A stretch of DNA of 64,000 nt from the NCBI GenBank assembly GCA_022425325.1, contig JAKMFW010000015.1:15937-79936 (forward strand). Reading direction: 5' to 3'. Source of the DNA: Acidimicrobiales bacterium. Its GTDB lineage: Bacteria > Actinomycetota > Acidimicrobiia > Acidimicrobiales > Aldehydirespiratoraceae. Position numbers and translations under genes: made by a program. Shown piece after piece: positions 34,637 through 50,761 of the stretch. How positions within the stretch are numbered: position 1 is the first letter of the stretch; each line of letters opens with the position of its first letter. A model generated the notes under the pieces. It had not been told where the DNA came from. It did no database searches and was given only the letters and a program-made list of their open reading frames with translations.

Positions 34637-34745
34637 GTACCTCCCCGGTCAGACGATCGGGGCCGATGGCGGTGGCGTGCTGCGGGCCTGACCCGTCGAT
34701 CGCCCGATCCGGCGGAAGGTTCGGCCAGGCCGTACGCTCTCGCCC

Positions 34746-35927
34746 ATGACCGATCGCTACACCCTCGTCTCGGCCGATTGCCACGCCGGCGCCGACCTCC
34801 ACACGTACCGCGGCTATCTCGAGTCCTCGTACCACGACGACTTCGACGCCTGGGCCGCCGACTTCTCGAACCCGTGGGAGGACCTCACCGACGAGTCGAA
34901 GATCCGCAACTGGGACAACGAGGTGCGTCAGCGCCAACTTGAGGCCGACGGCCTCGCCGGCGAAATCGTGTTCCCGAACACCATCCCGCCGTTCTTCCCC
35001 TCGGGCCTTCTGGTGTCCGGACCTCCCCGCACCGCTGAGGAACTCGATCAGCGATGGGCCGGGCTGCGGGCCCACAACCGGTGGCTCGCCGAGTGGTGCG
35101 AGGACCTCCCGGGTCGCCGCGCCGGCCTCGCCCAGGTTTTCCCGAACGATGTCGAGGCATCAGTCATGGAGATCCACTGGGCCGCCGAGCACGGCCTGAA
35201 GGGCATTCTCTTCCCGGCGATCCCGCCCGACGCCGACGTCCCGAAGCTGTGGAGCGACGAGTACGACCCCATCTGGCGGGCGTGCGAGGAGACCGGCCTG
35301 TCGGTCAACCAGCACGGCGGTGCCGGTGTGCCCGACTACAGCACCGCCAAGATCAAGAACTTCCTGATGATCATGGAGGTGCCGTTCTTCGCGAACCGCA
35401 GCCTCTGGCACGTGATCCTCTCGGGCGTTTTCGAACGGTTCCCGAACCTGCAGTTCGTGATGACCGAGCAACGCACCGGCTGGGTGCCCGAGACGCTCAA
35501 GAAGATGGACGGCGTCTGGTGGGCCTTCAACAACGGCGGCGTCGGTGAGCTGCGCATGGACGGCAACTCGCTCGAACGTTCACCGTCGAGCTACTTCGAC
35601 ACGAACTGCACCATGGGTGCAAGCTTTCCGTCGAGAGACGAGGCCGAGGCCATCAGGGAGCTCGGCGTGGGCAACGTGATGTGGGGCTCGGACTATCCGC
35701 ATCGCGAGGGGACCTACCCCGACTCGGTGGCGTCGTTGCGTCATGTCTTCCACGACTGGGAGCCGGCTGACCTCCACGAGCTCTTCGGCGGCACCGCGGC
35801 CAAGCTCTACGGCCTCGACATCGAGCCGATGGCTGCGTTGGAGCTCGGCCCGACGGTCGACGAGATCGCCACGCCCCTCGACGAGATTCCCGACAACCCG
35901 TCGATGGCGTTCGGTCGCCGTCTCTGA
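34746..35927 (+). CDS. amidohydrolase-2 (ACMSD-like metal-dependent hydrolase/decarboxylase)
   Basis: 393 aa. N-terminal SADCHAG metal motif and C-terminal WGSDYPHREG. TACGCT box 7 nt before the ATG. Confidence 0.8.
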   Translation: MTDRYTLVSADCHAGADLHTYRGYLESSYHDDFDAWAADFSNPWEDLTDESKIRNWDNEVRQRQLEADGLAGEIVFPNTIPPFFPSGLLVSGPPRTAEELDQRWAGLRAHNRWLAEWCEDLPGRRAGLAQVFPNDVEASVMEIHWAAEHGLKGILFPAIPPDADVPKLWSDEYDPIWRACEETGLSVNQHGGAGVPDYSTAKIKNFLMIMEVPFFANRSLWHVILSGVFERFPNLQFVMTEQRTGWVPETLKKMDGVWWAFNNGGVGELRMDGNSLERSPSSYFDTNCTMGASFPSRDEAEAIRELGVGNVMWGSDYPHREGTYPDSVASLRHVFHDWEPADLHELFGGTAAKLYGLDIEPMAALELGPTVDEIATPLDEIPDNPSMAFGRRL

Positions 35928-35946
35928 GGCCGTAGCCTCGGCCGCG

Positions 35947-36612
35947 ATGCGCGAGCCGATCTCCACCTACTACGGGCTGCTCCGTCGGATCCACGAGCTG
36001 CGGCGGCCCTCGCTGTACGTCGAGATCGGGGTGCACGAGGGCCACTCGTTGGCGTTCGTTCAACCCGGCACCCGCATCGTCGGGGTCGATCCCGAGCCAA
36101 AGGTGGCCGAACCTCCGCCCAATACGACAATCGTCGCCCAGACCAGTGACGATTTCTTCGCCGATCCCGAGGCTCTGGGCGGGGCAGCGATCGACCTTGC
36201 TTTCGCCGACGGCCTGCACTGGTGGGAGCAGACCCTGCGCGACGTCGCAAATCTGGAACGCCACAGCTCCCCTGACGGCGTGATTCTCATCCACGACTGC
36301 AATCCGATCGACGAGGTCACGGCGGCGCGCGAGCGCACAACAGCGGTCTGGTCGGGCGATGTCTGGAAGACCGTCGTCGCCCTTCGTCGTTTCCGACCCG
36401 ACCTGCAGGTTGTCGTCGCCGATGTCGAGCCGACCGGGCTGGCGATCGTCACCGGGCTCGATCCGACCAACACCGTCGTGTTCGACCGGTACGACGAGAT
36501 CGTCGCCGAGATCGACCGACTCGGCTGGGCGGACATCGCCGCCGCCGACCGCAGCGAGTTCCTGGGCTTGGTAGCCGGCGACTGGGCCGACCTCCGACCG
36601 CTGGTCGCCTGA
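35947..36612 (+). CDS. class I SAM-dependent methyltransferase (Methyltransf_24-like)
   Basis: Internal ATG 35947 of ORF 35743..36612. [11 protein letters not shown] (SAM motif I-like) and DLAFADGLH. Family assignment is moderate. Confidence 0.65.
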
Positions 36613-36691
36613 GCGTCACTCCCCCCTCACCGGCGACGATTCTTCGTCTAGCCTCCGACCGTTCCGGAGACGAACACCACAGGGGGATCCC

Positions 36692-37789
36692 ATGCCGCAG
36701 ACCGTGAAGGGCGTCATCGCCATGGAGCAGGACGCTCCGGTGACCATCGAGAACATCATCATCCCCGACCCAGGCCCGGGGGAAGCTGTTGTCGCCATCC
36801 AGGCATGCGGGGTCTGCCACACCGATCTGCACTACCGCGAGGGCGGTATCAACGACGAGTTCCCGTTCCTGCTCGGCCACGAGGCCAGTGGCGTCGTCGA
36901 AGCTGTCGGCGAGGGTGTGAGCGAGGTCGAGCCCGGCGACTTCGTGATCCTCAATTGGCGTGCTGTGTGCGGCACGTGCCGCAGCTGCCGCAAGGGCAAG
37001 CCACAGATCTGCTTCGACACCCACAACGCCACCCAGAAGATGACGCTCGAGGACGGCACCGAGCTGTCGCCGGCGCTCGGCATCGGTGCCTTCGCCGAGA
37101 AGACCCTGGTCGCTGCCGGCCAGTGCACCAAGGTCGATCCCGGGACGCGCCCGGCCGCCGCCGGCCTGCTCGGCTGTGGCGTGATGGCTGGGATCGGCGC
37201 CGCGATCAATACCGGCGGCGTCGGCCGCGGCGACAGCGTCGCCGTCTTCGGTTGTGGCGGCGTCGGCGACGCAGCCATTGCCGGTTCGAAGCTCGCAGGT
37301 GCGTCGATCATCATCGCCGTCGACATCGACGACCAGAAGCTCGAGTGGGCTACCGGTTTCGGTGCGACGCACACGATCAACTCCACCACCGAGGATCCGG
37401 TCGAGAAGATCCGCGAACTCACCGGTGGCCACGGTGTCGATGTCGCGATCGAGGCGATCGGGCTGCCCGAGGTCTATGCGCAGTGCTTCGAGGCCCGCGA
37501 CCTCGCCGGCACCGTCGTGCTCGTCGGTGTTCCTCGGCCCGACATGGAGCTGACGCTTCCGTTCCTCGACGTCTTCGGTCGAGGTGGTGCGCTCAAGTCG
37601 AGTTGGTACGGCGACTGTCTTCCGAGTCGCGACTTTCCGATGCTGATCGATCTCTACCAACAGGGCCGTCTCGATCTCGACGCCTTCGTCTCGGAGATCA
37701 TCGCCCTCGATGGTGTCGAGGAGGCCTTCCACAAGATGGAGCGGGGCGAGGTGCTCCGGTCGGTCGTCGAGATCGACGCGACACCGTGA
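36692..37789 (+). CDS. class III Zn alcohol dehydrogenase, S-(hydroxymethyl)mycothiol dehydrogenase-like
   Basis: 365 aa. [33 protein letters not shown] and FGCGGVG. AGGGGGA Shine-Dalgarno sequence upstream. Confidence 0.85.
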
Positions 37790-37799
37790 CGGCGCTCCG

Positions 37800-38228
37800 G
37801 TGACCGCCGCCGACATCGAGGCGATCCGACAACTCAAGGCACGGTACTTCCGCACCCTCGACCAGAAGGACTGGTCCGGTTATCGACAGGTCTTTGCCGA
37901 CGATGTCGAGATCGACGTGACCGACGATGCTGCCGACGGCCGCTACACGGGAACCGAGATCTACCTTCCGATGATCGAGTCGTTGCTCGGCACGGCGACA
38001 ACGGTGCACCGCGGTGGGCAGGCCGAGATCACCGTCGACGACGACACCGCCAGCGGCATCTGGGCGATGGACGACCGGATCTGGTTCCCCGGCGGGGCCA
38101 CCCTCGTCGGATCCGGCTGGTACGAGGAGACCTACCGACGCACCACCGACGGCTGGTTGATCGCCACCATGCGATTGCGCCGGCATCGGGTCGAACTCGA
38201 CGGGGTCGTGATTTTCCCGCGGAACTGA
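37800..38228 (+). CDS. NTF2/SnoaL-like fold protein
   Basis: 3' part of ORF 37710..38228, starting at GTG 37800. AADIEAIRQLKARYFRTLDQKDW is the typical SnoaL_4 N-terminus, and ...WLIATMRL is the typical C-terminal strand. Confidence 0.6.
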   Translation: MTAADIEAIRQLKARYFRTLDQKDWSGYRQVFADDVEIDVTDDAADGRYTGTEIYLPMIESLLGTATTVHRGGQAEITVDDDTASGIWAMDDRIWFPGGATLVGSGWYEETYRRTTDGWLIATMRLRRHRVELDGVVIFPRN

Positions 38229-38231
38229 GCG

Positions 38232-39698
38232 TCAGATCGTGAACGTTCGGCCCTCGACCGCAACCCGGGCGCCGATCAGGTCCTCCTGCGTGGCCCGAGC
38301 AGCCAACGCCTCGTCATCGCATGCGGCGACGGCCCGCTTCCCGCTGTCGAGATCGATGACCGCCGAAACCCGGGGGCCGGCGGTCGTGTAGGTGGCGATC
38401 ACCCCTGCACCGTGCGGGTCCTCGTCGAGCGGCGCGACATCGGTCGAGGCTTGGACATCGGCGACGAGATCGGATGGCGTGCATCGAACGCTGGGTTCCG
38501 TTCCCCACACGGTGAGGCCCGGCTTGGTGAGCAGCCCACTGACGGCGGTGACCAAGCCCCGCTCCCCCAGCCGCTCGCGCAGGCACTCGACCATCGCGAC
38601 CGTGGCTTGGAAGACGAAGTTGTTGAACGGGCCACCGGCGAACGGCATTCCACCCGTGATGGTGGCCGTCGCATCGGGGTCGAGTCCGAGTTCGGCCTGC
38701 TGCACCCGGACGGCGGCCGGGAAACACGAGTAGAGCTCGACGTGTTCGATTGCGGTGAGCGGCTCACCCAGCTGCGCCTCGGCCACTCGGCCGAGCACAC
38801 CCATCGCCGGCCATCGATGCAGATCGGCCCGACGGCTGAGCGACAGCGACTGCGACGACTCGAGCGCAACGAGCGGATAGACGGAACGATCAGGGGCGAT
38901 TCCGGCCAGTTCTGCGGTGGCGGTCGACGTGATGAGAATCGCGGCAGCCTGATCGACCCCCCACTGACTGTTGTGCCACTTGTTGTACGGGAACGCGAGC
39001 ATTCGGTTGGCTTCGCCGGGTTCACGGATCCATGCCGCCGAACGAGCTTCCGGGAAGGCCGCCTTCGGATTGGCGCGTGCGACCTCGTTGAACGATTCCC
39101 ACACGGCAGCGATGTCGTCCCGGTGCTCGTCGAGGGTCCACTCCGCCGCGGCTCGCCGAGCCGAGTCGATGAGCGCGTACTGCTGCACGGGGGCGACCGC
39201 GCCGATGTCGATCTCGGGGCGGGCGACAATCTCACCCTCGGGTGCGATCAGTTCGTCGTCACCGCGCTCGAACACATCGAGCGGCGGCAACTCGACTCCC
39301 GCCCGACGGGCAAGATCGTCACGCCGCTTGGTCTCACCGCCGACGATCAGCGCCGCGCGGACCGATCCGTCGAGGACGGCCTCGATCGCCCGATTGATGA
39401 GCGCCTGTTGGGGAATCCCCACCTGGTAGGTGACGACCTGCGCATCGGGAGCACCGACGGCATGGGCCACTCGGCCGGCGGCGTCGGTGAGCATCGACAG
39501 GCCCTGCGTGGCCAGCACGAGGTCGACCATCGAGGCAATCGAGTCGCTGCCGGTGTCGACGACCGCAGCACGAGCGGCCTCGCACATGAGTGCGGCACAG
39601 TCGACACCCTCACCGGGCTCGGTCGGCCATTGCTCCGCCGTCGCCACCCCGACGGCGACGGGATACGACCCGGCGAGATCCTCCGTGCTGATCGCCAT
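38232..39698 (-). CDS. thiolase-like protein (SCP-x/lipid-transfer-type, non-canonical)
   Basis: 488 aa. Thiolase-fold C-terminal blocks (ELYSCFPAAV, GGMPFAGGPFNN) plus a C-terminal extension of about 80 aa. The start overlaps the upstream stop by 1 nt. Confidence 0.75.
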   Translation of the reverse strand: MAISTEDLAGSYPVAVGVATAEQWPTEPGEGVDCAALMCEAARAAVVDTGSDSIASMVDLVLATQGLSMLTDAAGRVAHAVGAPDAQVVTYQVGIPQQALINRAIEAVLDGSVRAALIVGGETKRRDDLARRAGVELPPLDVFERGDDELIAPEGEIVARPEIDIGAVAPVQQYALIDSARRAAAEWTLDEHRDDIAAVWESFNEVARANPKAAFPEARSAAWIREPGEANRMLAFPYNKWHNSQWGVDQAAAILITSTATAELAGIAPDRSVYPLVALESSQSLSLSRRADLHRWPAMGVLGRVAEAQLGEPLTAIEHVELYSCFPAAVRVQQAELGLDPDATATITGGMPFAGGPFNNFVFQATVAMVECLRERLGERGLVTAVSGLLTKPGLTVWGTEPSVRCTPSDLVADVQASTDVAPLDEDPHGAGVIATYTTAGPRVSAVIDLDSGKRAVAACDDEALAARATQEDLIGARVAVEGRTFTI

Positions 39699-40315
39699 CA
39701 GGCCGGTCGGGTGAGGTCGAACAGGTCGGTGGCGTGGGAGTACCAGTTGCCGGCGTGGCGGCCGACCGCCCGCAGCTCGGACTGGTCGACGCGAGTGCCG
39801 TCGAGGACTCGATCGGCAACGTGCACCACGACAACTTCACCGATGACGAGATCGTTGCCACCTCCGGCGCGTCCGACGTGCACGATGTCGACGACGATGC
39901 ACTCCATCGTGGCGGTCGCCTCCGCAACGCGAGGCGGACGGATGCGTTCCGACGCCAGCTTGGTCAACCCGGCGTGCTCGAATTCGTCCTCCTCGGGCGG
40001 CAGTGTCGCAGCGGTGTCGTTCATCGCTGCGACGGTCTCGGCCGTGACGATGTTGACCGTGAACTCCGGTACCTGCTTCACGTTGGCGAGCGAGTCCTTG
40101 TCACCGCCGCCGACGGAACCGGGAGAGAAGGCAACGTGCATCGGGTCGTTGCCGATCAGGTTGAAGAACGAATAGGGCGCGAGGTTCGCGACGCCATCGG
40201 CCGAGATCGAGCCGATCCACCCGATGGGCCGCGGAACGATCAGGCCCGAGCACAGCTTGTAGGCATCGTGCGCAGCGATCTCGTCGGTGAAGAAGGTCGT
40301 CGAGGCGTCAAACAT
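39698..40315 (-). CDS. flavin reductase (FMN-binding split-barrel)
   Basis: 205 aa. VPRPIGWIGSISADGVANLAPYSFFN is the typical flavin-reductase-like-domain N-terminal block. Confidence 0.85.
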   Translation of the reverse strand: MFDASTTFFTDEIAAHDAYKLCSGLIVPRPIGWIGSISADGVANLAPYSFFNLIGNDPMHVAFSPGSVGGGDKDSLANVKQVPEFTVNIVTAETVAAMNDTAATLPPEEDEFEHAGLTKLASERIRPPRVAEATATMECIVVDIVHVGRAGGGNDLVIGEVVVVHVADRVLDGTRVDQSELRAVGRHAGNWYSHATDLFDLTRPA

Positions 40316-40320
40316 GGCTG

Positions 40321-40354
40321 AATTGTGCGACTCCAGCGTCCACTTGTCACAATT
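40321..40354. promoter_or_regulatory. inverted repeat AATTGTG-N20-CACAATT supplying mirror-image -10 boxes for divergent leaderless genes
   Basis: On each strand, CACAAT lies 6 nt before the start codon (ATG 40360 on + and ATG 40315 on -). The intergenic region is only 44 nt and is AT-richer than its surroundings. Confidence 0.4.
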
Positions 40355-40359
40355 GGCCC

Positions 40360-41484
40360 ATGACCGCCCTGCTCGACGCTGCCCGTGACCTGTTCGAAAC
40401 CCTCGACGCCGAGGCCGCGATCGCCGAGGAAGCTGGCACTCCGATGACCGATCGCGCCGTGGCTCTGTGTCGAGACGCCGGGTTGTACGGGACGATGATC
40501 GCCCGCGATGCCGGTGGCGCCGAGCTGACGATCGGCGAGAGCCTCGACGTCTTCAAGGAACTGGCCCGAGCGGACGGCTCGACCGGTTGGGTCGTCATGG
40601 CATCGTCAACTGCTGCCGCCTACTTCTCGGCGTTCTGCCCCGATTCGTTCGTCCAGCAGGCGTTCGGTGACGGCCCGTCGCCGCTGGTGGCCGGCCAGTT
40701 CGCCCCGAACGGCGTGGCCGTGCCCGACGGCGACACGTACGCCATCACCGGCTCGTACAACTTCGGCAGCGGCATCGAGCACGCTGACTGGGTCGGCTGC
40801 GGTTCGTTCACCGCCCCGACAGACGGCACGCCGGCCGATTACATGTTCGCCGTCGTTCCCAAAGAGGAAGCCGACATCACCGGCAACTGGGACGTCCTCG
40901 GGCTCCGGGCGACCGCCAGCTACGACTACTCGATCGACTCGACCGTCCCGGCCGACCGGACCTTCAGCTTCGGTGGCCACACCCGTCATCGGGGTGGCCC
41001 GATGTACGACCTCGGTGTGTTGTGCCTCACCGAGGTCGGCCATGCCGGTTGGGTGCTTGGTGTCCTGCGGCGAGCCATCGACGAGGCGGCCCTGATCGCC
41101 CGCTCGAAACAGCGCATGACCGGCAAGACCACACTCGCCGACGATCCCCGTTTCCAGTACGACCTGGCGATGGCCGAATCGACACTCCAGTCCGGCGAGC
41201 TGTGGATTCGCGACGCGTTCCACCGAGCCGAGCAGCACGCCATCGCCGGCGGCGGCATCGACCCGGCGATCGACAACGACGTTCGCCAGTCGACGACCTT
41301 CCTCACCCAGCGTGCGTGCCGCGTCGTGCAGGATCTCTACCTGCACATCGGCACGACCGCGCTGCGCGACGGGCCGTTCCAGCGCTGCTTCCGCGACCTG
41401 CATGCAGGCAGTCAGCACGCGATGGTGAGCCCGGCGCACACCTTCGAGTTCGCAGGCCGGCTCCTCGCCGAGCCTGAGGCTTAA
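40360..41484 (+). CDS. acyl-CoA dehydrogenase-fold protein, probable oxygenase partner of the divergent flavin reductase
   Basis: 374 aa with the ACAD-type three-domain layout (ITGSYNFGSGIEHADW..., C-terminal helical part). The pairing with the reductase is an inference from gene context. Confidence 0.75.
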   Translation: MTALLDAARDLFETLDAEAAIAEEAGTPMTDRAVALCRDAGLYGTMIARDAGGAELTIGESLDVFKELARADGSTGWVVMASSTAAAYFSAFCPDSFVQQAFGDGPSPLVAGQFAPNGVAVPDGDTYAITGSYNFGSGIEHADWVGCGSFTAPTDGTPADYMFAVVPKEEADITGNWDVLGLRATASYDYSIDSTVPADRTFSFGGHTRHRGGPMYDLGVLCLTEVGHAGWVLGVLRRAIDEAALIARSKQRMTGKTTLADDPRFQYDLAMAESTLQSGELWIRDAFHRAEQHAIAGGGIDPAIDNDVRQSTTFLTQRACRVVQDLYLHIGTTALRDGPFQRCFRDLHAGSQHAMVSPAHTFEFAGRLLAEPEA

Positions 41485-44048
41485 CCTTCGGCGCCGACCT
41501 TGTCGTCGAGCTTGGCAATCACCCGCTGCATCATCTCGCGAGCGACCATCGGCCCGGCGTTCTGGTTCTGACCGGTGATGAGGTCGCCGTCGACCGCGAC
41601 ATGGTTGGCGAAGGCATCGCGGCGCTTGTGGCGGGTCGACTCGAACAACGCCCCGGCGTTGCGCAGCTCCCGCTCCGGGTGCTGCGGGGTGTGGCTGATG
41701 CCGAGTTGCTTCACCTGACGGTCGGTGACGGCGGTGAGGCGACGTCCTTCGACGAACAAGGTGCCGTCGGGGTTCGTGGCCTGAAGGAGTCCGAGCGGTC
41801 CGTGGCACACGCCACCGATGACTGCGTCATTGGCGATCGCAGCCGAGGCTTGCTCGCCGACGACCTCGGAACGGCCGAGATCCCAGGCCGCACCCCAACC
41901 GCCGGCGAAGAAGACGATGTCGTACGTCGACATGTCGAGATCGCCGATGGCGAGCGAGTTCTCGCAGAGGTCCTGCAGGACCGGGTCGTCGAGGTAACGG
42001 TCGTCTTCGGTGGTGCGAATCGGGGGGCGGAACGATGTCGGGTCGAACGGGATGTCGCCCCCGCGAGGTGACGCCACGTCGACCTCCATGCCGGCGTCAA
42101 GGAAGGCGTAGTACGGCACGGTGAGTTCGGAGCCGAACACCCCCGTGGCCTTCCCGGGCTTGAGCGTGCCGTGGTTGGTGGCCACGACGAGCGCCCTACG
42201 CCCGGCAACACCCGACAGATCAACGCCGGTGACATCGTCGTCGGGGTGCATGCCCGCCTTCTGCAGCGCCTTGCGCAGGCGGAGGACCGGTCGTGGAGGT
42301 GTCTTCATCTTGGGGGTCTTTCGTTCGGGCCGCTGGACGTAGGGCCACGGGATGTTGCGTTCGTGAACCTTTTCGCTGCGGGTGGTGGTGAGCGTCTGCT
42401 GCAACGCGGTGAGCAGATCGGCGTGCGCCGGATCGATGGCGAGGTTGAGGGCCTCGATCGGATCGGCGTCGAGGTCGTAGAGCTCCCACTGATCGGGGAT
42501 CGGGTCGGTGCGAAACGCAGGGCCGGCCGGGCTGCGCACCGAGAGGTGACGCACGTGCGGATCGGTCCAGGTGGCCGGGTCATCGAAGGTGCGAGCGATC
42601 TTGTAGAGCGTGCCCTCGTGTTCGACGACGACGCCCTCGACGTTGGTCGCAGCATGGGCCGGGATCCGGATCTGCAGCGGGAACGCCGGTTCAAGCCGAC
42701 CACGGGCACGAGCCATCGCGCTCGCGGAACCGTCGCCTTCGAGCATGTTGTCGCGGGTGATCAGATAGATCGGCTGGCCTTCCGGCGCGTCTCCCGGCGA
42801 TGCGACCAGGCCGCTGAGATCACGCCCGGGGAGCGGGTGCACCTCGCTGTGGGTCTGCGTGAGCGTCTCGGCGAGTTCGGCCTCGTTGGCACCGGCGAGG
42901 CCAAGCAGGGTCGGCAGCAGGTCGATATGGCTGGTCGGTGTGCGCTCGATCGATGCTCCGACAGACGCCTGGGCTCCGACCCGAGCGATCTGGAACGGCA
43001 CTCGGACGGCCTCGTCGTAGAGCTGGTACCACTTCTGGTGCAGTCCGCCGTGCGAGCCGAGGAGGTCGCCGTGATCGGCGCTGAACACGAGCACGGCATC
43101 GTCGGCGTTGTCGGTGACGGCTTTGCGGACCCGATCGATCGGGCCGTCGACGTCGTGATGGAAGCGGTAGTAGAGCTCCCGGTACTCGGCCGCGTTTCTC
43201 TCGTACGCGCCCTTGACGAGTCGGGTGACCGCGTAACCCGAGTAGTACGCGTCTCGGTAGGCGCTGTGGAGCGCAGGCTTGCTCGAGAGATCCTCGTCGT
43301 CGGTGGGGGACGGCGGGATCGTCGGCGGCGGGGCGATCGACGGCGGGTAGGTCTTGCCCTGCCGCATGAAGCGCGGGAACAGCACGATGTCGTGCGGGTT
43401 GACGAAGCAGCACATGAGGAGGAACGGCTTCAGCGCTTCCTCATCGCCGGCTGCGCGGCGGGCGTACCGGTCCTCGAGCCATGCGACGGTGCGGTCGGCG
43501 TACAGCGGGTCGCGGATGTAGCCCGTGTTGGCGATATCGGCGCCGTGGGGTTCGGGCCCGACCCAGCCGCTGAAGCCGAACTCGCCGAGCGGGTCGGCAT
43601 CGAGGTACGCCTGCACAGCCTCGGGGAAGACGTGGCCATCACCCGAGTTGGTCGGCACCGGCTTGCCGTTCTTCATGAGGTCGGCGTGGCTGACATGCCA
43701 TTTGCCGTCGTAGTGGGTGTCGTAACCCGCGGCCCGGAACCAGTTGCCGATCGTGGGGACCTCACCCGGGCGCAGCCACCGCATGCGGGTGTCGTCGTGG
43801 AGTTTGCCGAGACCGTCGGTCTGGGTGACGCCGTGCACTTCGGGGTACTGGCCGGTGAGCAGCGACGGGCGACTCGGCACGCACGCGGTCGAGGCGACAT
43901 AGTGCCGCTCGAAGCTCACACCGTTGTCGGCGAACCAGGCACGGGCGGGCAGGTGCTCGTTGCGCCAGGCTCGAATCTCGTCGTTCTCGTAGCTCGGAGC
44001 GGCGCGCTCTTCGTCGGTGAGGATGATGATCAGGTCGGGACGGCTCAT
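41481..44048 (-). CDS. sulfatase (CxPxR formylglycine type) fused to a C-terminal DJ-1/PfpI domain
   Basis: ORF 41481..44219. ATG 44048 (MSRPDLIIILTDEERA). STACVPSRPSLLTG is the C-x-P-x-R motif. The C-terminal 239 aa (about 41484-42200) carry the DJ-1 nucleophile elbow IGGVCHGPLGL and ITGQN. One uninterrupted frame. Confidence 0.8.
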   Translation of the reverse strand: MSRPDLIIILTDEERAAPSYENDEIRAWRNEHLPARAWFADNGVSFERHYVASTACVPSRPSLLTGQYPEVHGVTQTDGLGKLHDDTRMRWLRPGEVPTIGNWFRAAGYDTHYDGKWHVSHADLMKNGKPVPTNSGDGHVFPEAVQAYLDADPLGEFGFSGWVGPEPHGADIANTGYIRDPLYADRTVAWLEDRYARRAAGDEEALKPFLLMCCFVNPHDIVLFPRFMRQGKTYPPSIAPPPTIPPSPTDDEDLSSKPALHSAYRDAYYSGYAVTRLVKGAYERNAAEYRELYYRFHHDVDGPIDRVRKAVTDNADDAVLVFSADHGDLLGSHGGLHQKWYQLYDEAVRVPFQIARVGAQASVGASIERTPTSHIDLLPTLLGLAGANEAELAETLTQTHSEVHPLPGRDLSGLVASPGDAPEGQPIYLITRDNMLEGDGSASAMARARGRLEPAFPLQIRIPAHAATNVEGVVVEHEGTLYKIARTFDDPATWTDPHVRHLSVRSPAGPAFRTDPIPDQWELYDLDADPIEALNLAIDPAHADLLTALQQTLTTTRSEKVHERNIPWPYVQRPERKTPKMKTPPRPVLRLRKALQKAGMHPDDDVTGVDLSGVAGRRALVVATNHGTLKPGKATGVFGSELTVPYYAFLDAGMEVDVASPRGGDIPFDPTSFRPPIRTTEDDRYLDDPVLQDLCENSLAIGDLDMSTYDIVFFAGGWGAAWDLGRSEVVGEQASAAIANDAVIGGVCHGPLGLLQATNPDGTLFVEGRRLTAVTDRQVKQLGISHTPQHPERELRNAGALFESTRHKRRDAFANHVAVDGDLITGQNQNAGPMVAREMMQRVIAKLDDKVGAEG

Positions 44049-44491
44049 GAGCTTTCCTTCTCGGAGCGGGCGACGAGGTCGTTGACGAGCGACGCGTTGG
44101 TTCGCCCGATCAACCGAGCGGCAGCTTTGGCGGCAAGCTTCATCGGCGGCCGTGGGCCGGGTTCGATGCTGGCGGTAAGTTCGATCGAGGTGCCGGCGCC
44201 GCGGGCCACCAGCACCCATCGGTTCTGCACGCTGCGCAGGGCCTTGGGGAGACCGAGGATCTCGTAGGCCATCACCTCATTCGGTGCCCACTCGACGATC
44301 TCCTCGAGCAGGACGTTGGATCCCACGACGACCCGACGGCGAGCGTCGGGCCCGGCCGGCGCAGCGGTCATGGCACTGCAGTGGTTGATGGCCGACGCCC
44401 AGGTGTGCAGCTGGAAATAGTCGCCGAGCACCGACCACACAACCTCGGGCGACGCAGACGAATAGCCGGCCTTGACGACGTGCTCGGTCAC
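44045..44491 (-). CDS. SRPBCC (START/polyketide-cyclase-like) ligand-binding protein
   Basis: 148 aa. SPEVVWSVLGDYFQLHTW... is a typical SRPBCC N-terminus. GTGA overlap upstream and ATGA overlap downstream. Confidence 0.7.
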   Translation of the reverse strand: MTEHVVKAGYSSASPEVVWSVLGDYFQLHTWASAINHCSAMTAAPAGPDARRRVVVGSNVLLEEIVEWAPNEVMAYEILGLPKALRSVQNRWVLVARGAGTSIELTASIEPGPRPPMKLAAKAAARLIGRTNASLVNDLVARSEKESS

Positions 44492-45099
44492 GATGTCTCC
44501 GGCGCGAGCAGGCGCGACAGGGCAGCCACCAATGCCGCTCGTGTCGCCGACTTCGAGAGTCGCTGGTGGAACCGCAGTGTCTCGATCGCCTCAAAAGTCA
44601 GCACCATGGTCATGGCGTTGGTGAGCGCGTCGGCCTCTTCGGTGGGAAGCGCGTCGAGGTCGGAGCGAAAATGGGCCCAGGCCTGGCGACGGAGCCGCGA
44701 CCGGTTGCGCGTGAGGTTGTCCATCAAGACGTCGCTGCGCAGAGCGTGCATGCGTCCGACGCGAGCGACCGGCGCCACCCGCTCGTAGAGGTCGAACCGG
44801 TGGTCGACGAACTGCTCGATTCGCCCCGCCCGATCGCCTGCGGGCTCGGCGTCGAACTGAAGGAAGGGCTCCAACATCGCGTGATGGCGTTCGATGGCGA
44901 CGCGATACAGCTCTTCGAGATCCTGGAAGTAGCGAAAGACACTGCGATGCGAGACGCCCGAGCGATCGGCGATCTCGTCGAGCGATGGCGAGACGTTGCC
45001 TTCTTGGTACAGCGACAAGATGGCGTCGACGACCGTCTCCCGGTTGCGGTCGCGACGAGCGCGGCGCCCGTCGATGCTGGCGAGTTCTCCCGAGCTCAT
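44488..45099 (-). CDS. TetR-family transcriptional regulator
   Basis: ORF 44488..45519. ATG 45099. HTH region RNRETVVDAILSLYQEGNVSPSLDEIADRSGVSHRSVFRYF. ATGA overlap with the upstream gene. Confidence 0.88.
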   Translation of the reverse strand: MSSGELASIDGRRARRDRNRETVVDAILSLYQEGNVSPSLDEIADRSGVSHRSVFRYFQDLEELYRVAIERHHAMLEPFLQFDAEPAGDRAGRIEQFVDHRFDLYERVAPVARVGRMHALRSDVLMDNLTRNRSRLRRQAWAHFRSDLDALPTEEADALTNAMTMVLTFEAIETLRFHQRLSKSATRAALVAALSRLLAPETS

Positions 45100-46250
45100 C
45101 GGTGCCCCGGCGCCATGTAGAACCAGACCGGGAAGGGTCCTTCGGCATCCTTGATCGCCTGGCGGGCGGCCATGACGACCTTTCCCGCCTCGGTGACCTC
45201 GTAGAACCAGGCCTCGGCGGCGCGGCCGGCGGGTGGCGGCCCGTCGACGAGTTCCATCGCTGCCTCCTCGTAGTACGAGCGGATGTCGTGCACGAGCGAG
45301 ATCGTGTTCTTGCCCGGAATGTCGGCGTCTTTCCACGGGGTGCCAGCGGCGATCGACTCGAGGGCGGCGATGGCTGCCTCGATGCCGTCGACGTCGACGG
45401 AGCGCCCGACTTGCGTGGCGCCCCGCTTGGCGAACGAGCGCTCCCAGGCCTTGCGGAGACCTCGGAGTTCTTGCACGGCAGCCGATGCCTCGGCGTCGAA
45501 GGCCGGTGGGATCTGACAACTCATCGGTGTCTCATCGGCCTCGATGACCTCGGGATGATGCTCGAGCACCGGGCCAGATTCGGCGTCGAGCAGGGCGAAC
45601 GCACGGGCGAGCACGTCGTGCTGGAACTCGGGATCCTGTGGCTTGCCGAGGGGACGACCGAGGGGGAAGTCACACCAGAGCGCTCGAGGCGGTTGGGTCC
45701 GCTCGACGACCGACAGGGTCGAGGCCAGCGTGACGGTGGCGATACCGGCCGCTTCGAAGACATGGGCGAGCACACTCACGGTGCGCGTGCAGAGCGGTCA
45801 AACGGGGGTGAGGAGCACGACGTCGACGCCGTCGGCCTTCAGGGCCGCTGCGGCGGCCGGGCCAGAATCCATGCGGATCGTGGCGACATCGTCAGGCTGG
45901 TTGCCGGCGAAGCTGACGTGTCGATCGGCAACCGAGCCGATCACACCCTGCTCGGCGAGCTCCTCGAGCCGGTCGATCGGGTAGACGACATTGAGGTCGA
46001 GGGTGAATCCCGTGCGGTCGAAATTCGGACTCCAGTGACCGAGCACGAGATCGCGTGCTTCGCGTGGGACGAACCGATAGCTCGTGTCGCCCTGGGAGAA
46101 GCGATCGTCGTCGGTCGTGTGGAGTGCCGCCGAGGTCACGATCGCGACCTTGGCCTGCGCCAGCGGCGTGGGGGTCACCCAGGCTGGATCTTCGAAGGTC
46201 GGCGTCGGGAAGTTGTCCCCGAGCGCCCGCATTGCAACATCACCGGACAT
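45096..46250 (-). CDS. PrdB/GrdB-family (selenoprotein-B-like reductase) protein, predicted selenoprotein with in-frame UGA at 45798-45800
   Basis: ORFs 45798..46283 and 45096..45779 are in the same frame, 18 nt apart, and separated only by TGA. The joined sequence is ...GVDVVLLTPV-U-PLCTRTVSVLAHVFEAAGIATV... (UxxC). ATG 46250 is preferred as the start (TATGCT box 6 nt upstream). Confidence 0.6.
45770..45800 (-). other. candidate selenocysteine codon plus SECIS-like hairpin
   Basis: The mRNA reads UGA CCG CUC UGC ACG CGC ACC GUG AGU GUG C. Positions +15 to +31 pair GCGCAC with GUGUGC (6 bp, one G-U) around the loop CGUGA, placing G-U at +22/+23. Confidence 0.4.
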
Positions 46251-46256
46251 GACCGC

Positions 46257-46285
46257 AGCATAATTTGGCAGTCTGACTGCCACAA
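46257..46285 (-). promoter_or_regulatory. candidate leaderless promoter (-35 TTGTGG, 17 nt, -10 TATGCT) with embedded perfect palindrome GGCAGTC-T-GACTGCC (46267-46281)
   Basis: Minus-strand reading of the 45-nt AT-richer gap between the echA-like stop and ATG 46250. The palindrome fills the promoter spacer, the classic repressor-operator position. A TetR gene lies in the operon. Confidence 0.4.
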
Positions 46286-46295
46286 GTCAGGTTGG

Positions 46296-47066
46296 TCACT
46301 CCACCTCGACCTGGTCTCGGCCCCGAGCCTCGATGTCGGCCCGCCGGTCGGCAAAAGCCGAGCGATCAAAGCCACCGCGCTCGATCCACGAGCGGTTGAC
46401 TTCGCGCTCGACGGTGAGCCCCTCGGCCGGTGTCACCGAGCCGGCCGCCCAATACAGCCGTTTCATCGCCGACACCGTGACCGCCTCGATGCCCGCCACA
46501 TCGGCGGCAAGCGCTTGCGCTCGACCGACAAGTTCGTCGTGAGGGACGATCTCGTTGAGCAGCCCCCACTCGAGCGCCTGGCGAGCGTCGACATAATTGC
46601 CGGTGAAGCTCATCTGACGGGCTCGCCGAACCCCGACGGCACGGGGCAGTTCGACTGACAATCCCCAACCCGGCAAGATCCCGACACGGGCGTGGGTGTC
46701 GGCGAACGCCGCCCGTTCCGAGCCGATCAGAAGGTCGCACGCCAGCGCGAGTTCGAGTCCGCCGGTGACCGCAGCGCCGTTGACCGCGCCGATGACCGGT
46801 GTGCCCATGTCGGCCGGGATCGGCGGCGCCGAGCCACCACCGCCGAGCGTGCCCTCGGCGAGATCGTGCAGGTCGAGCCCCGCACAGAACGCCGGGTCGG
46901 CACCCGTCAGCACGATGGCGGCGACGTCGGCGTTGGCATCGAGCGACGTCATCGCCTCTCGGAGGCCGCCGATCAACAAGGCGTTGAGGGCATTGCGGAC
47001 CTCGGGCCGGTTCAGCCAGACGGTGGCCACCGGACCCTCGATCTCCACGTGCAGGACATCATCCAT
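46296..47066 (-). CDS. enoyl-CoA hydratase/isomerase
   Basis: 256 aa. VWLNRPEVRNAL, FCAGLDL and GAVNGAAVTGGLELALACD (crotonase signature). Confidence 0.88.
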   Translation of the reverse strand: MDDVLHVEIEGPVATVWLNRPEVRNALNALLIGGLREAMTSLDANADVAAIVLTGADPAFCAGLDLHDLAEGTLGGGGSAPPIPADMGTPVIGAVNGAAVTGGLELALACDLLIGSERAAFADTHARVGILPGWGLSVELPRAVGVRRARQMSFTGNYVDARQALEWGLLNEIVPHDELVGRAQALAADVAGIEAVTVSAMKRLYWAAGSVTPAEGLTVEREVNRSWIERGGFDRSAFADRRADIEARGRDQVEVE

Positions 47067-47077
47067 GCGCCTCGGTC

Positions 47078-47083
47078 TAGCAT
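47078..47083 (+). promoter_or_regulatory. candidate -10 box TAGCAT, 6 nt before the acyl-CoA ligase ATG (leaderless)
   Basis: The divergent intergenic region is only 23 nt. TANNNT then 6 nt then ATG 47090. Confidence 0.35.
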
Positions 47084-47089
47084 CCCGGC

Positions 47090-48637
47090 ATGGAACACAA
47101 CATCGGCCAGTGGGTGGCCAAGCGCGCCCTCCTGAACCCCAACAGCGAAGCCATCGTCGACATCACCAGTGGTCGGCGCCAGACCTACGTCGAACTCGAC
47201 GCCCGATGCAACCAGGTCGGCAACGGCCTTGTCTCCGGCGGCCTCGCCCAGGGCGACCGGGTCGCCACCTTGTTGATGAACGGTCCGGAGTTCGTCGAGA
47301 CCTTCTTCGGCGCCGCAAAGATCGGCGGCGTGATCGTCGCACTCAACTGGCGTCTCGTCGCCGACGAATTGTCGTTCATCCTCAACGACTCCGGCGCGTC
47401 CACGCTCGTGTTCGGCACCGCCTTCAACGAGGTGGTGGCCGAACTCCAGTCACGCGGCACCGATGGCACCAAGGTCACCCGTTGGATCCACGTCGGCGAC
47501 GCCGCCGATCGCCCCGACTTCGCCGAAGGCTACGAGGACATGATCAGCGCCTCGTCCTCGGCGCCGATCGTCAGCACCGCCGGCGACGACGACCTTCTCT
47601 TCATCATGTACACCTCGGGCACCACCGGCCTGCCCAAGGGGGCGATGCACAGCCACAACACCTCCATGTGGGGCTGCCTGACCGCCAATGTCACTGCCGA
47701 TACCCGCTACGGCGACAACTATCTGATCTGCCTGCCGCTGTTCCACGTCGGTGCGCTCAACCCGATGCTGTCGATCATCAACCTTGGCGGCACGGCGACG
47801 ATCATGAGCGAGTTCGATCCCGTGAAGATCTGGGAGGTCTTCGGCGAGGAGAAAATCACCGTCACGCTCGCCGTGCCGGCGATGTTGCAGTTCATGCTGC
47901 TCACCTACGACAAGGACGCGCACGACACCTCGTCGCTTCGTTGGGTCATGTCGGGTGCGGCGCCGGTGCCCGTCAGCTTGATCGAGACCTATGCCGCGAT
48001 GGGTATCGAGATCCACCAGGTGTACGGCCTGACCGAGACGTGCGGCCCGGCCTGCCTGATCTCCCCCGACGACGCCCTCGACCGCGCCGGCTCCACCGGC
48101 AAGGAGTTCTTCTTCACCCGGGTTCGCGTGGTCAACGAAGCCGGCGATGACTGTGGACCGGACGAGCCCGGCGAAGTGCTGGTCAAGGGGCCGCACATCA
48201 TGGTCGGCTACCTCAACCGCGAGGACGCCACTGCCGAGTCGATCGTCGACGGATGGCTGCGCACGGGCGACGTCGCCGTGATGGACGCCGACGGTTTCGT
48301 CTACATCCAGGACCGCGTCAAGGACATGATCATCTCCGGCGGCGAGAACGTGTATCCGGCCGAGATCGAGAACGCGATCTTCGGCATGGAAGGCGTGAAC
48401 GAGGTCGCCGTCATCGGCATCCCGTCGGAGAAGTGGGGCGAATCGCCGCTGGCCGTCGTGGTCCGCGCCGACGACTCCGTTACCGAAGACGCCGTGCTTG
48501 AACACGTGTCCGGCAAACTCGCCCGTTTCAAGCAGCCCAAGAAGGTCGAGTTCGTCGACGTAATCCCCCGTAACCCCACGGGCAAGGTGCTCAAACGGGT
48601 GCTGCGCGATCAGTTCGCCGATGTCTCGGCCGAGTGA
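47090..48637 (+). CDS. acyl-CoA synthetase / AMP-dependent ligase (FadD-like)
   Basis: 515 aa. AMP-binding motif YTSGTTGLPKGAMHSH, plus YGLTE, GWLRTGD and PRNPTGKVLK. Confidence 0.9.
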   Translation: MEHNIGQWVAKRALLNPNSEAIVDITSGRRQTYVELDARCNQVGNGLVSGGLAQGDRVATLLMNGPEFVETFFGAAKIGGVIVALNWRLVADELSFILNDSGASTLVFGTAFNEVVAELQSRGTDGTKVTRWIHVGDAADRPDFAEGYEDMISASSSAPIVSTAGDDDLLFIMYTSGTTGLPKGAMHSHNTSMWGCLTANVTADTRYGDNYLICLPLFHVGALNPMLSIINLGGTATIMSEFDPVKIWEVFGEEKITVTLAVPAMLQFMLLTYDKDAHDTSSLRWVMSGAAPVPVSLIETYAAMGIEIHQVYGLTETCGPACLISPDDALDRAGSTGKEFFFTRVRVVNEAGDDCGPDEPGEVLVKGPHIMVGYLNREDATAESIVDGWLRTGDVAVMDADGFVYIQDRVKDMIISGGENVYPAEIENAIFGMEGVNEVAVIGIPSEKWGESPLAVVVRADDSVTEDAVLEHVSGKLARFKQPKKVEFVDVIPRNPTGKVLKRVLRDQFADVSAE

Positions 48638-48670
48638 CCGCTTCCGCCCGGTGACCATCACGGCGACGGC

Positions 48671-49765: not shown

Positions 49766-49784
49766 CCTGCGCCGCCGCGAGCGA

Positions 49785-50675: not shown

Positions 50676-50761
50676 GAGTGCGACGCTACCGGCGCTTGGT
50701 CGCGACCCCCTCGGCGTCTTCGGACGCGAGCGGTTCGCGCCGGAGCGCTAGCGTGCGGCCG

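Follow-up and report, generated by a model that had tools for sequence, protein, structure and literature searches.

An AtsF-related sulfatase fused to a DJ-1/PfpI domain in Acidimicrobiales, and its candidate role in sulfate ester desulfation

Is a polypeptide that joins a sulfatase to a DJ-1/PfpI domain the product of a real gene, and, if so, what might the second domain do for the first? The question is raised by an 855-codon open reading frame on the minus strand of a 64,000-nucleotide stretch (the window) of an Acidimicrobiales genome (Table 1). A sequence-only reading had located this frame without giving its strand and had proposed that one polypeptide combines a sulfatase of the formylglycine type with a DJ-1/PfpI domain. 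The frame is present, as are all of the peptides quoted from it: LIIILTDEERA at residues 6–16, STACVPSRPSLLTG at 53–66 with Cys56, RPERKTPKMKTPPRPVLRLRK at 573–593, and GGVCHGPLG at 745–753 with Cys748. The domain scan that was recommended finds both PF00884 and PF01965 above their thresholds, each with its catalytic signature. The longest ATG reading of the frame in the ORF listing would yield 912 aa (41481..44219, minus strand). We prefer the ATG at 44048 because it shares an ATGA with the stop of the 148-aa ORF that precedes it, GAAGGAAAG lying immediately 5' of it, because gene callers on three other assemblies also called exactly 855 aa, and because homolog alignments begin at residue 1–3 of this form.

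The single frame could in principle be an artifact of assembly or gene calling that joined two adjacent genes, an explanation to which we assign next to no probability and which we regard as excluded. An identical product occurs on three independent assemblies made from different samples with different assemblers, 118 full-length fused clusters were found at 90% identity, and the linker has a length and flanking motifs that are conserved in the family. Complete chromosomes from long reads and cultured isolates of Nocardioides also encode fused orthologs. The ORF represents one real gene, predicted to encode a cytoplasmic protein with two modules whose catalytic residues are intact. The fusion had been called unusual, and as a statement of rarity this does not hold. 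Both domains are present in every one of the best 120 clusters at 90% identity, no fewer than 54 species genomes of Acidimicrobiia and Nocardioides encode fused orthologs, and 54 of the 82 analyzable reference loci are fused (the other 28 are short, DJ-1-less forms). The fusion belongs to a widespread actinobacterial family, which automatic pipelines already name [quoted passage not shown]. The accompanying remark that no enzyme with this architecture has been characterized agrees with our literature searches, which found neither such an enzyme nor a paper describing a sulfatase–DJ-1 fusion.

Table 1. Features of the fusion gene and its neighborhood (window positions).
Feature	Position	Strand	Basis and remarks
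Fusion CDS, 855 aa	41481..44048	-	ORF, RBS-like GAAGGAAAG, gene calls, Pfam; stop codon 41481-41483
AtsF-type S1 sulfatase module, residues 1-570 (predicted)	42339..44048	-	Pfam, Foldseek, AtsF identity; core 4-387 plus C-terminal subdomain
C56-V-P-S-R60, predicted formylglycine site	43869..43883	-	Direct reading; invariant in 46/46 aligned members
Linker, variable, basic/Pro-rich, residues 571-587	42288..42338	-	Low identity, low pLDDT, no secondary structure
DJ-1/PfpI module, Hsp31-like, residues 588-855 (predicted)	41484..42287	-	Pfam, PDB matches, Foldseek; N-terminal helix included
Cys748-His749, nucleophile elbow	41802..41807	-	Invariant in fused, standalone and MBL-fused members
SRPBCC/START-like (Polyketide_cyc2) partner gene, 148 aa	44045..44491	-	Pfam; stop overlaps fusion start by 4 nt
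TetR-family regulator, 203 aa	44488..45099	-	TetR_N 24.0 bits, at Pfam cut-off; 203-aa gene call on L001/L002
Acyl-CoA_dh_2-type flavoprotein (DszC/SfnB-like class)	40360..41484	+	Convergent; stops overlap by 4 nt
Flavin reductase (Flavin_Reduct)	39698..40315	-	Pfam; context only

The N-terminal module is predicted to be an S1 sulfatase of the Cys type, dependent on formylglycine, from the AtsF (Rv3077) family. PF00884 matches residues 4–387 over its full model, 1–301 (E=8.6e-43, 147.2 bits vs a cut-off of 25), PF16347 (SGSH_C) matches residues 518–557, and Foldseek retrieved many S1 structures at a probability of 1.00. The C56-V-P-S-R60 motif agrees with the (C/S)-x-P-x-R signature of S1 sulfatases. 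Nine residues (D12, C56, R60, K116, H118, H219, D325, H326, and K339) are invariant in 46 aligned sequences. The metal- and sulfate-binding set is present as an N-terminal Asp, the GKWH Lys/His, the NPHD His, the DHG Asp/His, and a downstream Lys; we take all of the nine except C56 and R60 to be the PAS/ARSA counterparts, matched by motif. By sequence, the top solved sulfatase is the choline-O-sulfatase BetC (SulfAtlas S1_12, PDB 6FNY/6G5Z; E=3.9e-18), likewise a Cys-type S1 enzyme with a small-molecule substrate, and TIGR03417 is the best NCBIfam model for the fusion. However, identity to BetC is only ~19–20% in the structural alignment, and BetC has neither a DJ-1 domain nor an SRPBCC partner. 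The TIGR03417 score (102.3 bits) is far below the equivalog cut-off of 433.45, so by that model the fusion is not a choline sulfatase. The protein has no signal peptide, and its first beta-strand begins at residue 5 of the structure model. Pseudomonas aeruginosa AtsA is a cytoplasmic Cys-type arylsulfatase that belongs to the sulfate-starvation response and acts on imported aromatic sulfate esters. It provides a precedent for a cytoplasmic formylglycine sulfatase, but it has one domain only, and both its regulon and its transporter setting differ.

A relationship that the sequence-only reading overlooked is that to AtsF of Mycobacterium tuberculosis. The sulfatase module is 59.4% identical to AtsF (residues 2–573 vs 3–583, 584 aligned positions), and the two share the CVPSR motif and the lack of a signal peptide. 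Rv3076 lies upstream of AtsF and overlaps it, as the SRPBCC gene does here, and the two partners are 34% identical (E=2e-27). The M. tuberculosis locus runs from Rv3075c to pknK. A review lists Rv3076 as START-like and in an operon with rv3077 (PMC13525633), while AtsF itself is described as an uncharacterized type I sulfatase (PMC3675115, PMC13525633) without a known substrate (PMC3675115). In contrast to the fusion, AtsF has 603 aa and ends about 30 residues past the PWPY motif, without a DJ-1 domain, and no separate DJ-1 gene was found within 10 kb of it. The fusion, at 855 aa and with its extra module, therefore departs from the single-domain architecture of about 600 aa that is typical of AtsF, while its high identity over the full-length module and its SRPBCC synteny are those of the AtsF orthologous group. 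In the tree, the ingroup, mycobacterial AtsF included, is monophyletic relative to other sulfatases (100% bootstrap), and the short forms are nested within the fused forms (bootstrap 100/0/94). The window protein is a fused relative of AtsF and not an AtsF look-alike. Judging from the tree, the mycobacterial lineage lost the DJ-1 domain and kept the SRPBCC–sulfatase pair.

The C-terminal module is assigned, from its sequence, to the Hsp31-like DJ-1/PfpI domains as a distinct subtype. PF01965 matches residues 639–841 (E=4.8e-11, 43.2 bits vs a gathering score of 26.6), and a conserved G-M-H-P-D-D motif occupies residues 599–604 in the N-terminal part of the module. The structure model has the geometry of a nucleophile elbow, with a strand at 743–747, Cys748, and a helix at 750–754. 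The closest solved structures are REP24 of Francisella tularensis (PDB 4P5P) and APC35852 of Geobacillus stearothermophilus (PDB 1U9C), at E about 1e-30, 29–31% identity, and Foldseek TM-scores of 0.91 and 0.88, respectively. Both differ from the module in being standalone proteins of ~225 aa that retain a Glu at the triad position, and no biochemical function for either was found in the literature searched. The nearest characterized relatives are the glutathione-independent glyoxalases III of the Hsp31 class (Candida albicans Glx3, PDB 4LRU; Saccharomyces cerevisiae Hsp31; Escherichia coli HchA), which have the same fold and the Cys-His elbow. The module aligns with Glx3 at E=1.5e-15 and keeps the Glu equivalent to DJ-1 Glu18. 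This residue, E641, is matched by a Glu in 1u9c, 4p5p, and Glx3 and, like C748, is invariant. The module has an N-terminal extension like that of HchA, with the alignment starting at residue 602; its score of 36.8 bits falls short of the HchA equivalog NF003168 (365). Unlike the Hsp31 class, the fusion has the subtype-specific invariant motifs VTD(K/R)Q, TPxHPE, and GQNQN, and a sulfatase is attached. The acid of the Hsp31-type triad, expected ~30 residues after the Cys, is absent: the position of Glx3 Glu168 is a nearly invariant Val779, next to an invariant Gln778. Because this third triad residue is not conserved, glyoxalase III chemistry is an analogy for the module and not a membership. 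Mean pairwise identity is 0.72 for the DJ-1 module, 0.69 for the sulfatase core, and 0.42 for the linker. Conservation of the DJ-1 module is level with that of the sulfatase core, which speaks for selection acting on a separate function.

The genomic context adds two partners. The SRPBCC gene (PF10604, E=4.1e-16, 60 bits vs 27.4), also overlooked at first, lies directly upstream in 79 of the 82 loci, namely in 54/54 fused and 25/28 short ones, and natural SRPBCC–sulfatase fusions exist (P0123, P0328–P0335). By analogy with its fold family, its product probably binds a ligand. TetR, SRPBCC, and fusion genes form an apparent operon in that order with 4-nt overlaps. Homologs of the regulator adjoin the module in many loci, in varying position and strand, and neighbors of the fusion other than SRPBCC vary between loci. 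The canonical operon of Acidimicrobiia comprises TetR, sulfatase 2, MBL, alpha/beta-hydrolase, SRPBCC, and the fusion; the window locus lacks its sulfatase 2, MBL, alpha/beta-hydrolase, and c8/c17 genes. The Acyl-CoA_dh_2-type flavoprotein neighbor is conserved in the subclade of the window, and together with the flavin reductase it resembles a two-component monooxygenase.

The reading that we favor, with confidence poised evenly between acceptance and doubt, is that of a cytoplasmic module under TetR control that would desulfate a hydrophobic sulfate ester, with the DJ-1 domain providing a second, cofactor-free step. TetR, SRPBCC, and the fusion would make up a module that is inducible and serves the catabolism, detoxification, or scavenging of an aryl, steroid, or lipid-type ester. 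The SRPBCC protein would bind and present a poorly soluble substrate or product. The formylglycine hydrate derived from Cys56, supplied by a formylglycine-generating enzyme (FGE) encoded elsewhere in the genome, would attack the sulfate ester to give an alcohol or phenol and sulfate. Cys748, with His749 and Glu641, might then carry out the second step in the same pathway, most likely the hydrolysis or isomerization, by chemistry of the glyoxalase III/DJ-1 type, of a reactive carbonyl or acyl electrophile that the substrate carries or that desulfation unmasks. Because the mycobacterial lineage dropped the domain and retained the SRPBCC–sulfatase pair, the DJ-1 step would be accessory.

The same module could instead serve sulfur scavenging as a cytoplasmic sulfatase of the sulfate-starvation type, like P. 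aeruginosa AtsA, freeing sulfate from imported esters and serving neither carbon catabolism nor detoxification, with DJ-1 still a side activity. Pairs of such a flavoprotein and a flavin reductase are typical of organosulfur monooxygenases (DszC/SfnB/MsuC class), and in the window and its subclade they flank the fusion; luciferase-like monooxygenases also recur nearby (cluster c12; the Rv3079c position). In Mycobacterium abscessus, AtsF was detected only in carbon-starved cells (preprint PMC13174468), which we count on the side of scavenging. However, the regulator is of the ligand-induced TetR type and not of a sulfur-regulon type, the canonical operon places hydrolases (MBL, alpha/beta-hydrolase) beside the fusion and not sulfur-assimilation genes, and no conserved sulfate-ester transporter adjoins. 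We consider scavenging unlikely, at a fraction of the confidence given to inducible desulfation.

The DJ-1 subtype can also be followed beyond the fusion, an association with sulfatases in other phyla that had been missed. The same module, including its "AGLHPE/D" motif, occurs as a standalone protein and fused to MBL hydrolases, the latter in Myxococcota (at least 16 clusters). In 24 of 52 marine loci, the gene for a membrane-anchored standalone DJ-1 comes before genes for a small membrane protein and a sulfatase; GST, SDR, MBL, alpha/beta-hydrolase, and TetR genes recur at such loci. The marine partner sulfatase is homologous to sulfatase 2 of the Acidimicrobiia operon (E=1.6e-83). Altogether, two or more Cys-type S1 subfamilies that are unrelated to each other (CVPSR; CAPAR/CSPTR) accompany the subtype in different phyla. 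The subtype recurs beside or fused to sulfatases and MBL hydrolases in several phyla, and its link to sulfatase pathways does not depend on this fusion. One might ask whether the domain is a structural or regulatory appendage, such as a scaffold for dimerization, a holdase of the Hsp31 kind acting on the sulfatase, or a redox sensor built on Cys748. Proteins of the DJ-1 superfamily form obligate oligomers and Hsp31 acts as a holdase, the domain is dispensable in the mycobacterial lineage, and the canonical third triad residue is missing. Yet Cys-His, Glu641, Gln778, His790-Pro-Glu792, and GQNQN do not vary among members of different phyla, whether these are fused to a sulfatase, fused to MBL, or standalone; the module is conserved to the same degree as the catalytic core of the sulfatase; and the standalone members are separate membrane-anchored proteins and not scaffolds within a sulfatase chain. 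An appendage is improbable in our estimate, somewhat more so than scavenging.

Sulfatase partners from at least two unrelated S1 subfamilies would also fit a sulfatase-generic role for DJ-1, which leads to the maturation of formylglycine. The observation that neither an FGE nor an anaerobic sulfatase maturase is present in the window stands: Pfam found no PF03781 among 54 GC3-selected ORFs, nor was it in the precomputed Pfam annotation of 31481–51055, and a six-frame scan of the window for the GNxWEW motif, which recovered a true FGE elsewhere, gave no match. The sole radical-SAM protein in the window is MoaA (3243–4235), with Mob_synth_C. The subtype might serve the sulfatase cofactor itself, helping to make formylglycine (an FGE-independent route) or, more plausibly, repairing and unblocking its aldehyde by clearing thiohemiacetal or imine adducts. 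What the unrelated sulfatases of different phyla share is the cofactor and not the substrate, and the GNxWEW scan found no FGE near any actinobacterial locus examined. Mycobacterium, the lineage that lost the domain, has a well-characterized FGE, reportedly described by Carlson et al. in 2008, a study that PMC3675115 cites. However, at locus L110 the cluster that holds DJ-1 and sulfatases also encodes a bona fide FGE (PF03781, 241.6 bits), so that DJ-1 is no substitute for FGE there, and an FGE-like motif is present at L112. A signal anchor or lipoprotein signal suggests that standalone and MBL-fused members lie outside the cytoplasm, where no Cys-type maturation is known, the chemistry of Cys-nucleophile DJ-1 proteins is not oxidative, and the GST, MBL, alpha/beta-hydrolase, and SDR genes that occur alongside indicate a pathway for small molecules. 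A cofactor role is therefore a long shot, the least probable of the functional readings weighed here. If true, a dedicated cofactor helper would explain why one DJ-1 subtype accompanies unrelated sulfatases in Actinomycetota, Myxococcota, and marine gram-negative bacteria, and it would be relevant to a question of long standing, namely how Cys-type sulfatases undergo maturation or stay active without FGE.

The sequence-only reading described an uninterrupted frame joining a sulfatase to a DJ-1/PfpI domain, and this is what the minus strand holds: the ORF list gives a frame at 41481..44219 (-), 912 aa from its first ATG, and every peptide quoted from the sequence lies in the 855-aa portion starting at 44048. 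We also prefer that proposed start, because its ATG overlaps the TGA of an upstream 148-aa ORF (…GAGAAGGAAAGCTCATGAGC…), as is typical of a coupled start, because an identical 855-aa product was called independently on three other assemblies, and because homologs align to the fusion from residue 1–3. Pfam, suggested as the check on the two domains, matched both. The possibility that the single frame was produced by misassembly is refuted by the identical protein on two ENA metagenome scaffolds and one Logan assembly. The description of the architecture as unusual did not hold in the sense of rarity. In a collection of 5.8 billion proteins, PF00884 and PF01965 occur together in all 120 of the best 120 clusters at 90% identity, 118 of them full length (843–901 aa), with Nocardioides, Ilumatobacter, Microthrixaceae, and other Acidimicrobiales as named sources. 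Clustering at 50% leaves one full-length representative (P0121), so the fused family is compact. The GTDB species genomes that carry fused orthologs belong to Acidimicrobiia and Nocardioides, among them N. conyzicola and N. tweenelious, and include complete chromosomes of the sponge-associated Ca. Poriferisocius and Poriferisodalis. The nearest relatives of the window fusion (69–71% identity) come from Ca. Microthrix and Acidimicrobiales MAGs, which would make the source of the window an uncultured member of the Acidimicrobiia. The architecture is already in public databases under automatic names, and JGI labels the fusion [quoted passage not shown]. In line with the sequence-only reading, which was aware of no characterised enzyme of this kind, the literature search found no description of this architecture and no paper on a sulfatase–DJ-1 fusion or association.

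The fusion reached none of the NCBIfam equivalogs. Choline sulfatase (102 bits against a cut-off of 433) and HchA (36.8 bits against 365) were rejected as identities, and the curated models for arylsulfatase, PehA, Mn-arylsulfatase, and PfpI likewise scored far below each cut-off. Alignments of 119 sequences, and of a subset of 46, showed invariant residues in the sulfatase (D12, C56-V-P-S-R60, K116 and H118 of GKWH, H219 of NPHD, D325-H326 of DHG, and K339) and in DJ-1 (E641, C748-H749, Q778, H790-P791-E792, and a GQNQN motif). Mean pairwise identity was 0.69 in the sulfatase core, 0.63 in the C-terminal subdomain, 0.42 in the linker (571–587), and 0.72 in DJ-1; constraint on DJ-1 is therefore at least as strong as that on the sulfatase. 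From their aligned residues, both modules look catalytically intact. A non-catalytic role for the DJ-1 module is disfavoured, given that its active-site residues are invariant across phyla. In an AlphaFold2 model (pLDDT 80.3, pTM 0.68), the strand–Cys748–helix elbow is visible. Foldseek matched the C-terminal part to 4P5P (REP24; TM 0.91) and 1U9C (TM 0.88), and the N-terminal part to generic S1 sulfatases at 16–20% identity. By sequence, too, 4P5P and 1U9C are closest to the DJ-1 part (E about 1e-30), with the glyoxalase III Glx3 at 1.5e-15; a literature search on REP24 turned up crystallography-methods papers alone. The third triad residue of the Hsp31 class, Glu168 in Glx3 and also Glu in 1U9C and 4P5P, is instead Val779 in the fusion. 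The first beta-strand begins at residue 5, so a signal peptide is absent, and we infer a cytoplasmic location.

Upstream of the fusion lie genes for a START-like SRPBCC protein and a TetR regulator, and every junction in this TetR–SRPBCC–fusion series is a 4-nt overlap, which for the SRPBCC and fusion genes suggests translational coupling. We compared 82 reference loci, all with 500 nt or more of upstream sequence, comprising fused forms, with both domains, and short forms, the DJ-1-less AtsF-like proteins of Mycobacterium and Mycolicibacterium (AtsF is Rv3077 of M. tuberculosis). In 79 of them (54 of 54 fused, 25 of 28 short), the gene directly upstream, in the same orientation, encodes an SRPBCC homolog, at an inferred spacing from the sulfatase of mostly -8 to +27 nt. 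SRPBCC is the obligatory partner of the fusion. The link is strengthened by natural fusions of the two. One protein, P0123, is an AtsF-type sulfatase with a C-terminal SRPBCC domain that is 33% identical to the window SRPBCC, and proteins of 756–759 aa from Logan assemblies of Mycobacterium (P0328–P0335) combine Polyketide_cyc2/SRPBCC and AtsF sulfatase in one chain. Overlapping genes of the Rv3076 and Rv3077 types are therefore read as one gene in some mycobacteria.

Features of the fusion, its loci, and other window genes (coordinates are those of the window unless a locus or residues are named)
Feature	Location	Strand	Details
Sulfatase PF00884	residues 4-387		Pfam E=8.6e-43
SGSH_C	residues 518-557		Pfam
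DJ-1_PfpI PF01965	residues 639-841		Pfam E=4.8e-11; 43.2 bits, cut-off 26.6
Sulfatase–DJ-1 fusion gene	41481-44048	-	855 aa
SRPBCC/Polyketide_cyc2 gene	44045-44491	-	148 aa; Pfam
TetR gene	44488-45099	-	precedes SRPBCC gene
227-aa ORF	45096-45779	-	homolog in one other locus alone (L053)
161-aa ORF	45798-46283	-	beside 227-aa ORF; matches only the C-terminal third of GRDB (glycine/sarcosine/betaine reductase selenoprotein B)
Acyl-CoA_dh_2-type flavoprotein	40360-41484	+	convergent with fusion; stops overlap 4 nt
Flavin reductase	39698-40315	-	near flavoprotein
MoaC, MoaA, MoeA	2753-5447	-	molybdenum-cofactor biosynthesis cluster
Three consecutive PmbA/TldD-family metallopeptidase genes	8905-13040	-	477, 448, 475 aa
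GyrB-type topoisomerase subunit gene	28102-30291	-	beside ChrR-like cupin; adjacent GyrA-type gene none noticed
275-aa gene downstream of fusion	L013 12571-13398		conserved, 19 fused loci; weakly DUF1330-like
202-aa gene downstream of fusion	L013 13403-14011		conserved, 8 loci; no Pfam match
Sulfatase 2, neighbour			fused loci 30/57; short loci 0/28
MBL hydrolase, neighbour			fused loci 26/57; short loci 3/28
Alpha/beta-hydrolase, neighbour			fused loci 31/57; short loci 1/28
HpcH/CitE-like gene	M. tuberculosis-type locus, 1	opposite
SRPBCC	M. tuberculosis-type locus, 2		158 aa
Sulfatase	M. tuberculosis-type locus, 3		603 aa
133-aa gene	M. tuberculosis-type locus, 4
Luciferase-like gene	M. tuberculosis-type locus, 5	opposite
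Ser/Thr kinase	M. tuberculosis-type locus, 6		1110 aa

Roughly half of the fused loci place the module in a tight operon, which in the reference locus L013 runs TetR, sulfatase 2 (756 aa, CSPTR), MBL hydrolase, alpha/beta-hydrolase, SRPBCC, fusion, 275-aa gene, and 202-aa gene. Searched by tblastn, the window has no sulfatase 2, MBL, or alpha/beta-hydrolase, and neither of the neighbour families c8 and c17. For the small partners, Pfam gave a sub-threshold DUF1330 match to c8, a sub-threshold DUF4345 match to p125 (a membrane protein of ~125 aa found near standalone DJ-1), and nothing for c17 or the 227-aa ORF of the window. On the other side of the fusion, the flavoprotein and flavin reductase form a pair that is conserved in the window's subclade (L004, L008, L010) and resembles a DszC/SfnB-class two-component flavin monooxygenase. 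A role of the module in sulfur scavenging would be compatible with such monooxygenase neighbours, but a TetR regulator and operons rich in hydrolases argue against a classic sulfur regulon.

The sulfatase part belongs with a mycobacterial protein. In 28 reference loci from Mycobacterium and Mycolicibacterium, the match to the fusion covers residues 3–573 only, and the M. asiaticum short form used as a query found proteins of ~600 aa genus-wide, including in M. tuberculosis, M. marinum, and M. kansasii. The gene order of the M. tuberculosis-type locus is one we take to be Rv3075c–Rv3080c (pknK) of the H37Rv annotation. AtsF of M. tuberculosis is 59.4% identical to the window fusion over residues 2–573, and Rv3076 is 34% identical to the window SRPBCC. 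AtsF is one of five type I sulfatases in M. tuberculosis, none of which had a known substrate in a 2013 study (PMC3675115), and in M. abscessus it was detected under carbon starvation only (preprint PMC13174468). Rv3076 is described in a 2026 review as START-like, in an operon with rv3077/rv3078, and of unknown function (PMC13525633). Some M. tuberculosis strains (GCA_000661855.1 and GCA_040143835.1; L091/L092, 5001-7271) carry, in place of the 603-aa form, an AtsF variant of 756 aa in which Pfam matches Sulfatase twice, an internal duplication. When the sulfatase part was placed in a neighbour-joining tree (100 bootstraps; a distance tree with no term for horizontal transfer), the short forms are monophyletic with 100% bootstrap, the fused forms alone are monophyletic in 0% of replicates, and all sequences except the window's small clade are monophyletic in 94%. 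This places DJ-1-less AtsF and P0123 inside the fused forms, and the simplest reading of the tree would be one gain of DJ-1, then loss. A split version in mycobacteria, with a short sulfatase and a separate DJ-1 gene, was ruled out within 10 kb, where no short form has a DJ-1 homolog.

Functions in the DJ-1 superfamily are notoriously hard to assign, and the context of this subtype outside the fusion is informative. In Myxococcota/"Deltaproteobacteria", at least 16 clusters join an MBL domain to the subtype (55% identity, shared motifs); these proteins are secreted or of lipoprotein type, and their MBL domain is related to the MBL of the Acidimicrobiia operon (29% identity, E=4e-27). In standalone DJ-1 proteins (P0218, P0223, P0255, P0260, P0230), an N-terminal membrane anchor precedes the AGLHPE motif of the fusion subtype. 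Their context was taken from 79 marine metagenome loci, some of them near-duplicates, so that the counts are approximate: DJ-1 is followed by a four-helix membrane protein of ~125 aa and then by a signal-peptide sulfatase in 24 of the 52 loci that extend far enough downstream, 28 of 48 loci have a sulfatase no more than 5 kb away, and GST, SDR, TetR, MBL, and alpha/beta-hydrolase genes recur. The conserved membrane protein, which always separates standalone DJ-1 from the sulfatase (for example, L095 8886-9275; seen across L095–L173), has a sub-threshold DUF4345 match, and DUF4345 also occurs as a domain of one MBL protein (P0470). Acidimicrobiia sulfatase 2 and the sulfatase that accompanies DJ-1 in the marine loci are full-length homologs (33% identity over 546 aa, E=1.6e-83), and the latter has only a remote relation to the AtsF-type module. 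With sulfatase-linked loci in three phyla, the DJ-1 subtype therefore accompanies at least two type I sulfatase subfamilies and the same hydrolase set.

That the partner sulfatases of DJ-1 are unrelated to each other makes attractive the idea of a cofactor helper, in which DJ-1 repairs or generates formylglycine. As the sequence-only reading had noted, the window has no formylglycine-generating enzyme (FGE) or anaerobic sulfatase maturase: Pfam on 54 GC3-selected ORFs, together with precomputed Pfam for 31481-51055, gave no PF03781, and the sole radical-SAM protein is MoaA, which was rejected as a maturase and belongs to the molybdenum-cofactor cluster. A six-frame scan for the GNxWEW motif, which did find a true FGE at another locus, had no match in the window, and a search of the window and 1.67 Mb of actinobacterial loci for an FGE near the fusion module likewise found none. 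However, a bona fide FGE (PF03781, 241.6 bits) at L110 4214-5203 shares a cluster with two sulfatases and a standalone DJ-1, and an FGE-like motif occurs in another standalone-DJ-1 locus (L112), so that DJ-1 is a weaker candidate for an FGE substitute. An extracytoplasmic location, which the standalone forms appear to have, is a further point against a helper.

We favour a second catalytic step in the same pathway. The ligand-inducible module would act on a hydrophobic sulfate ester, with the SRPBCC protein binding substrate or product and the formylglycine hydrate from Cys56 cleaving the ester; Cys748, His749, and Glu641 would then carry out a cofactor-free step, which by analogy may be the removal of a reactive carbonyl or acyl electrophile. 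We favour this chemistry because the closest characterised relatives are glyoxalases III and the recurrent partners are MBL, GST, SDR, and alpha/beta-hydrolase proteins. As the triad acid is missing in the fusion, a glyoxalase III role is an analogy and not a membership. The lack of a cofactor requirement in DJ-1 enzymes suits a subtype that works inside and outside the cytoplasm. Steroid, aryl, or lipid sulfates are plausible substrates, given the START-like partner and lipid-type neighbours.

The fusion adds an unstudied catalytic accessory to a sulfatase of known kind and has SRPBCC as an obligatory partner. If the DJ-1 step is coupled to desulfation, the fusion would represent a bifunctional sulfatase of a new kind, and the TetR regulator and SRPBCC protein offer handles for tracing the inducer or substrate. 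A DJ-1/PfpI subtype defined in several phyla by a context rich in sulfatases and MBL hydrolases is useful for function assignment. The uncharacterised AtsF/Rv3077 and START-like Rv3076 of M. tuberculosis are now tied to a larger, better-contextualised family, which gives them a testable context.
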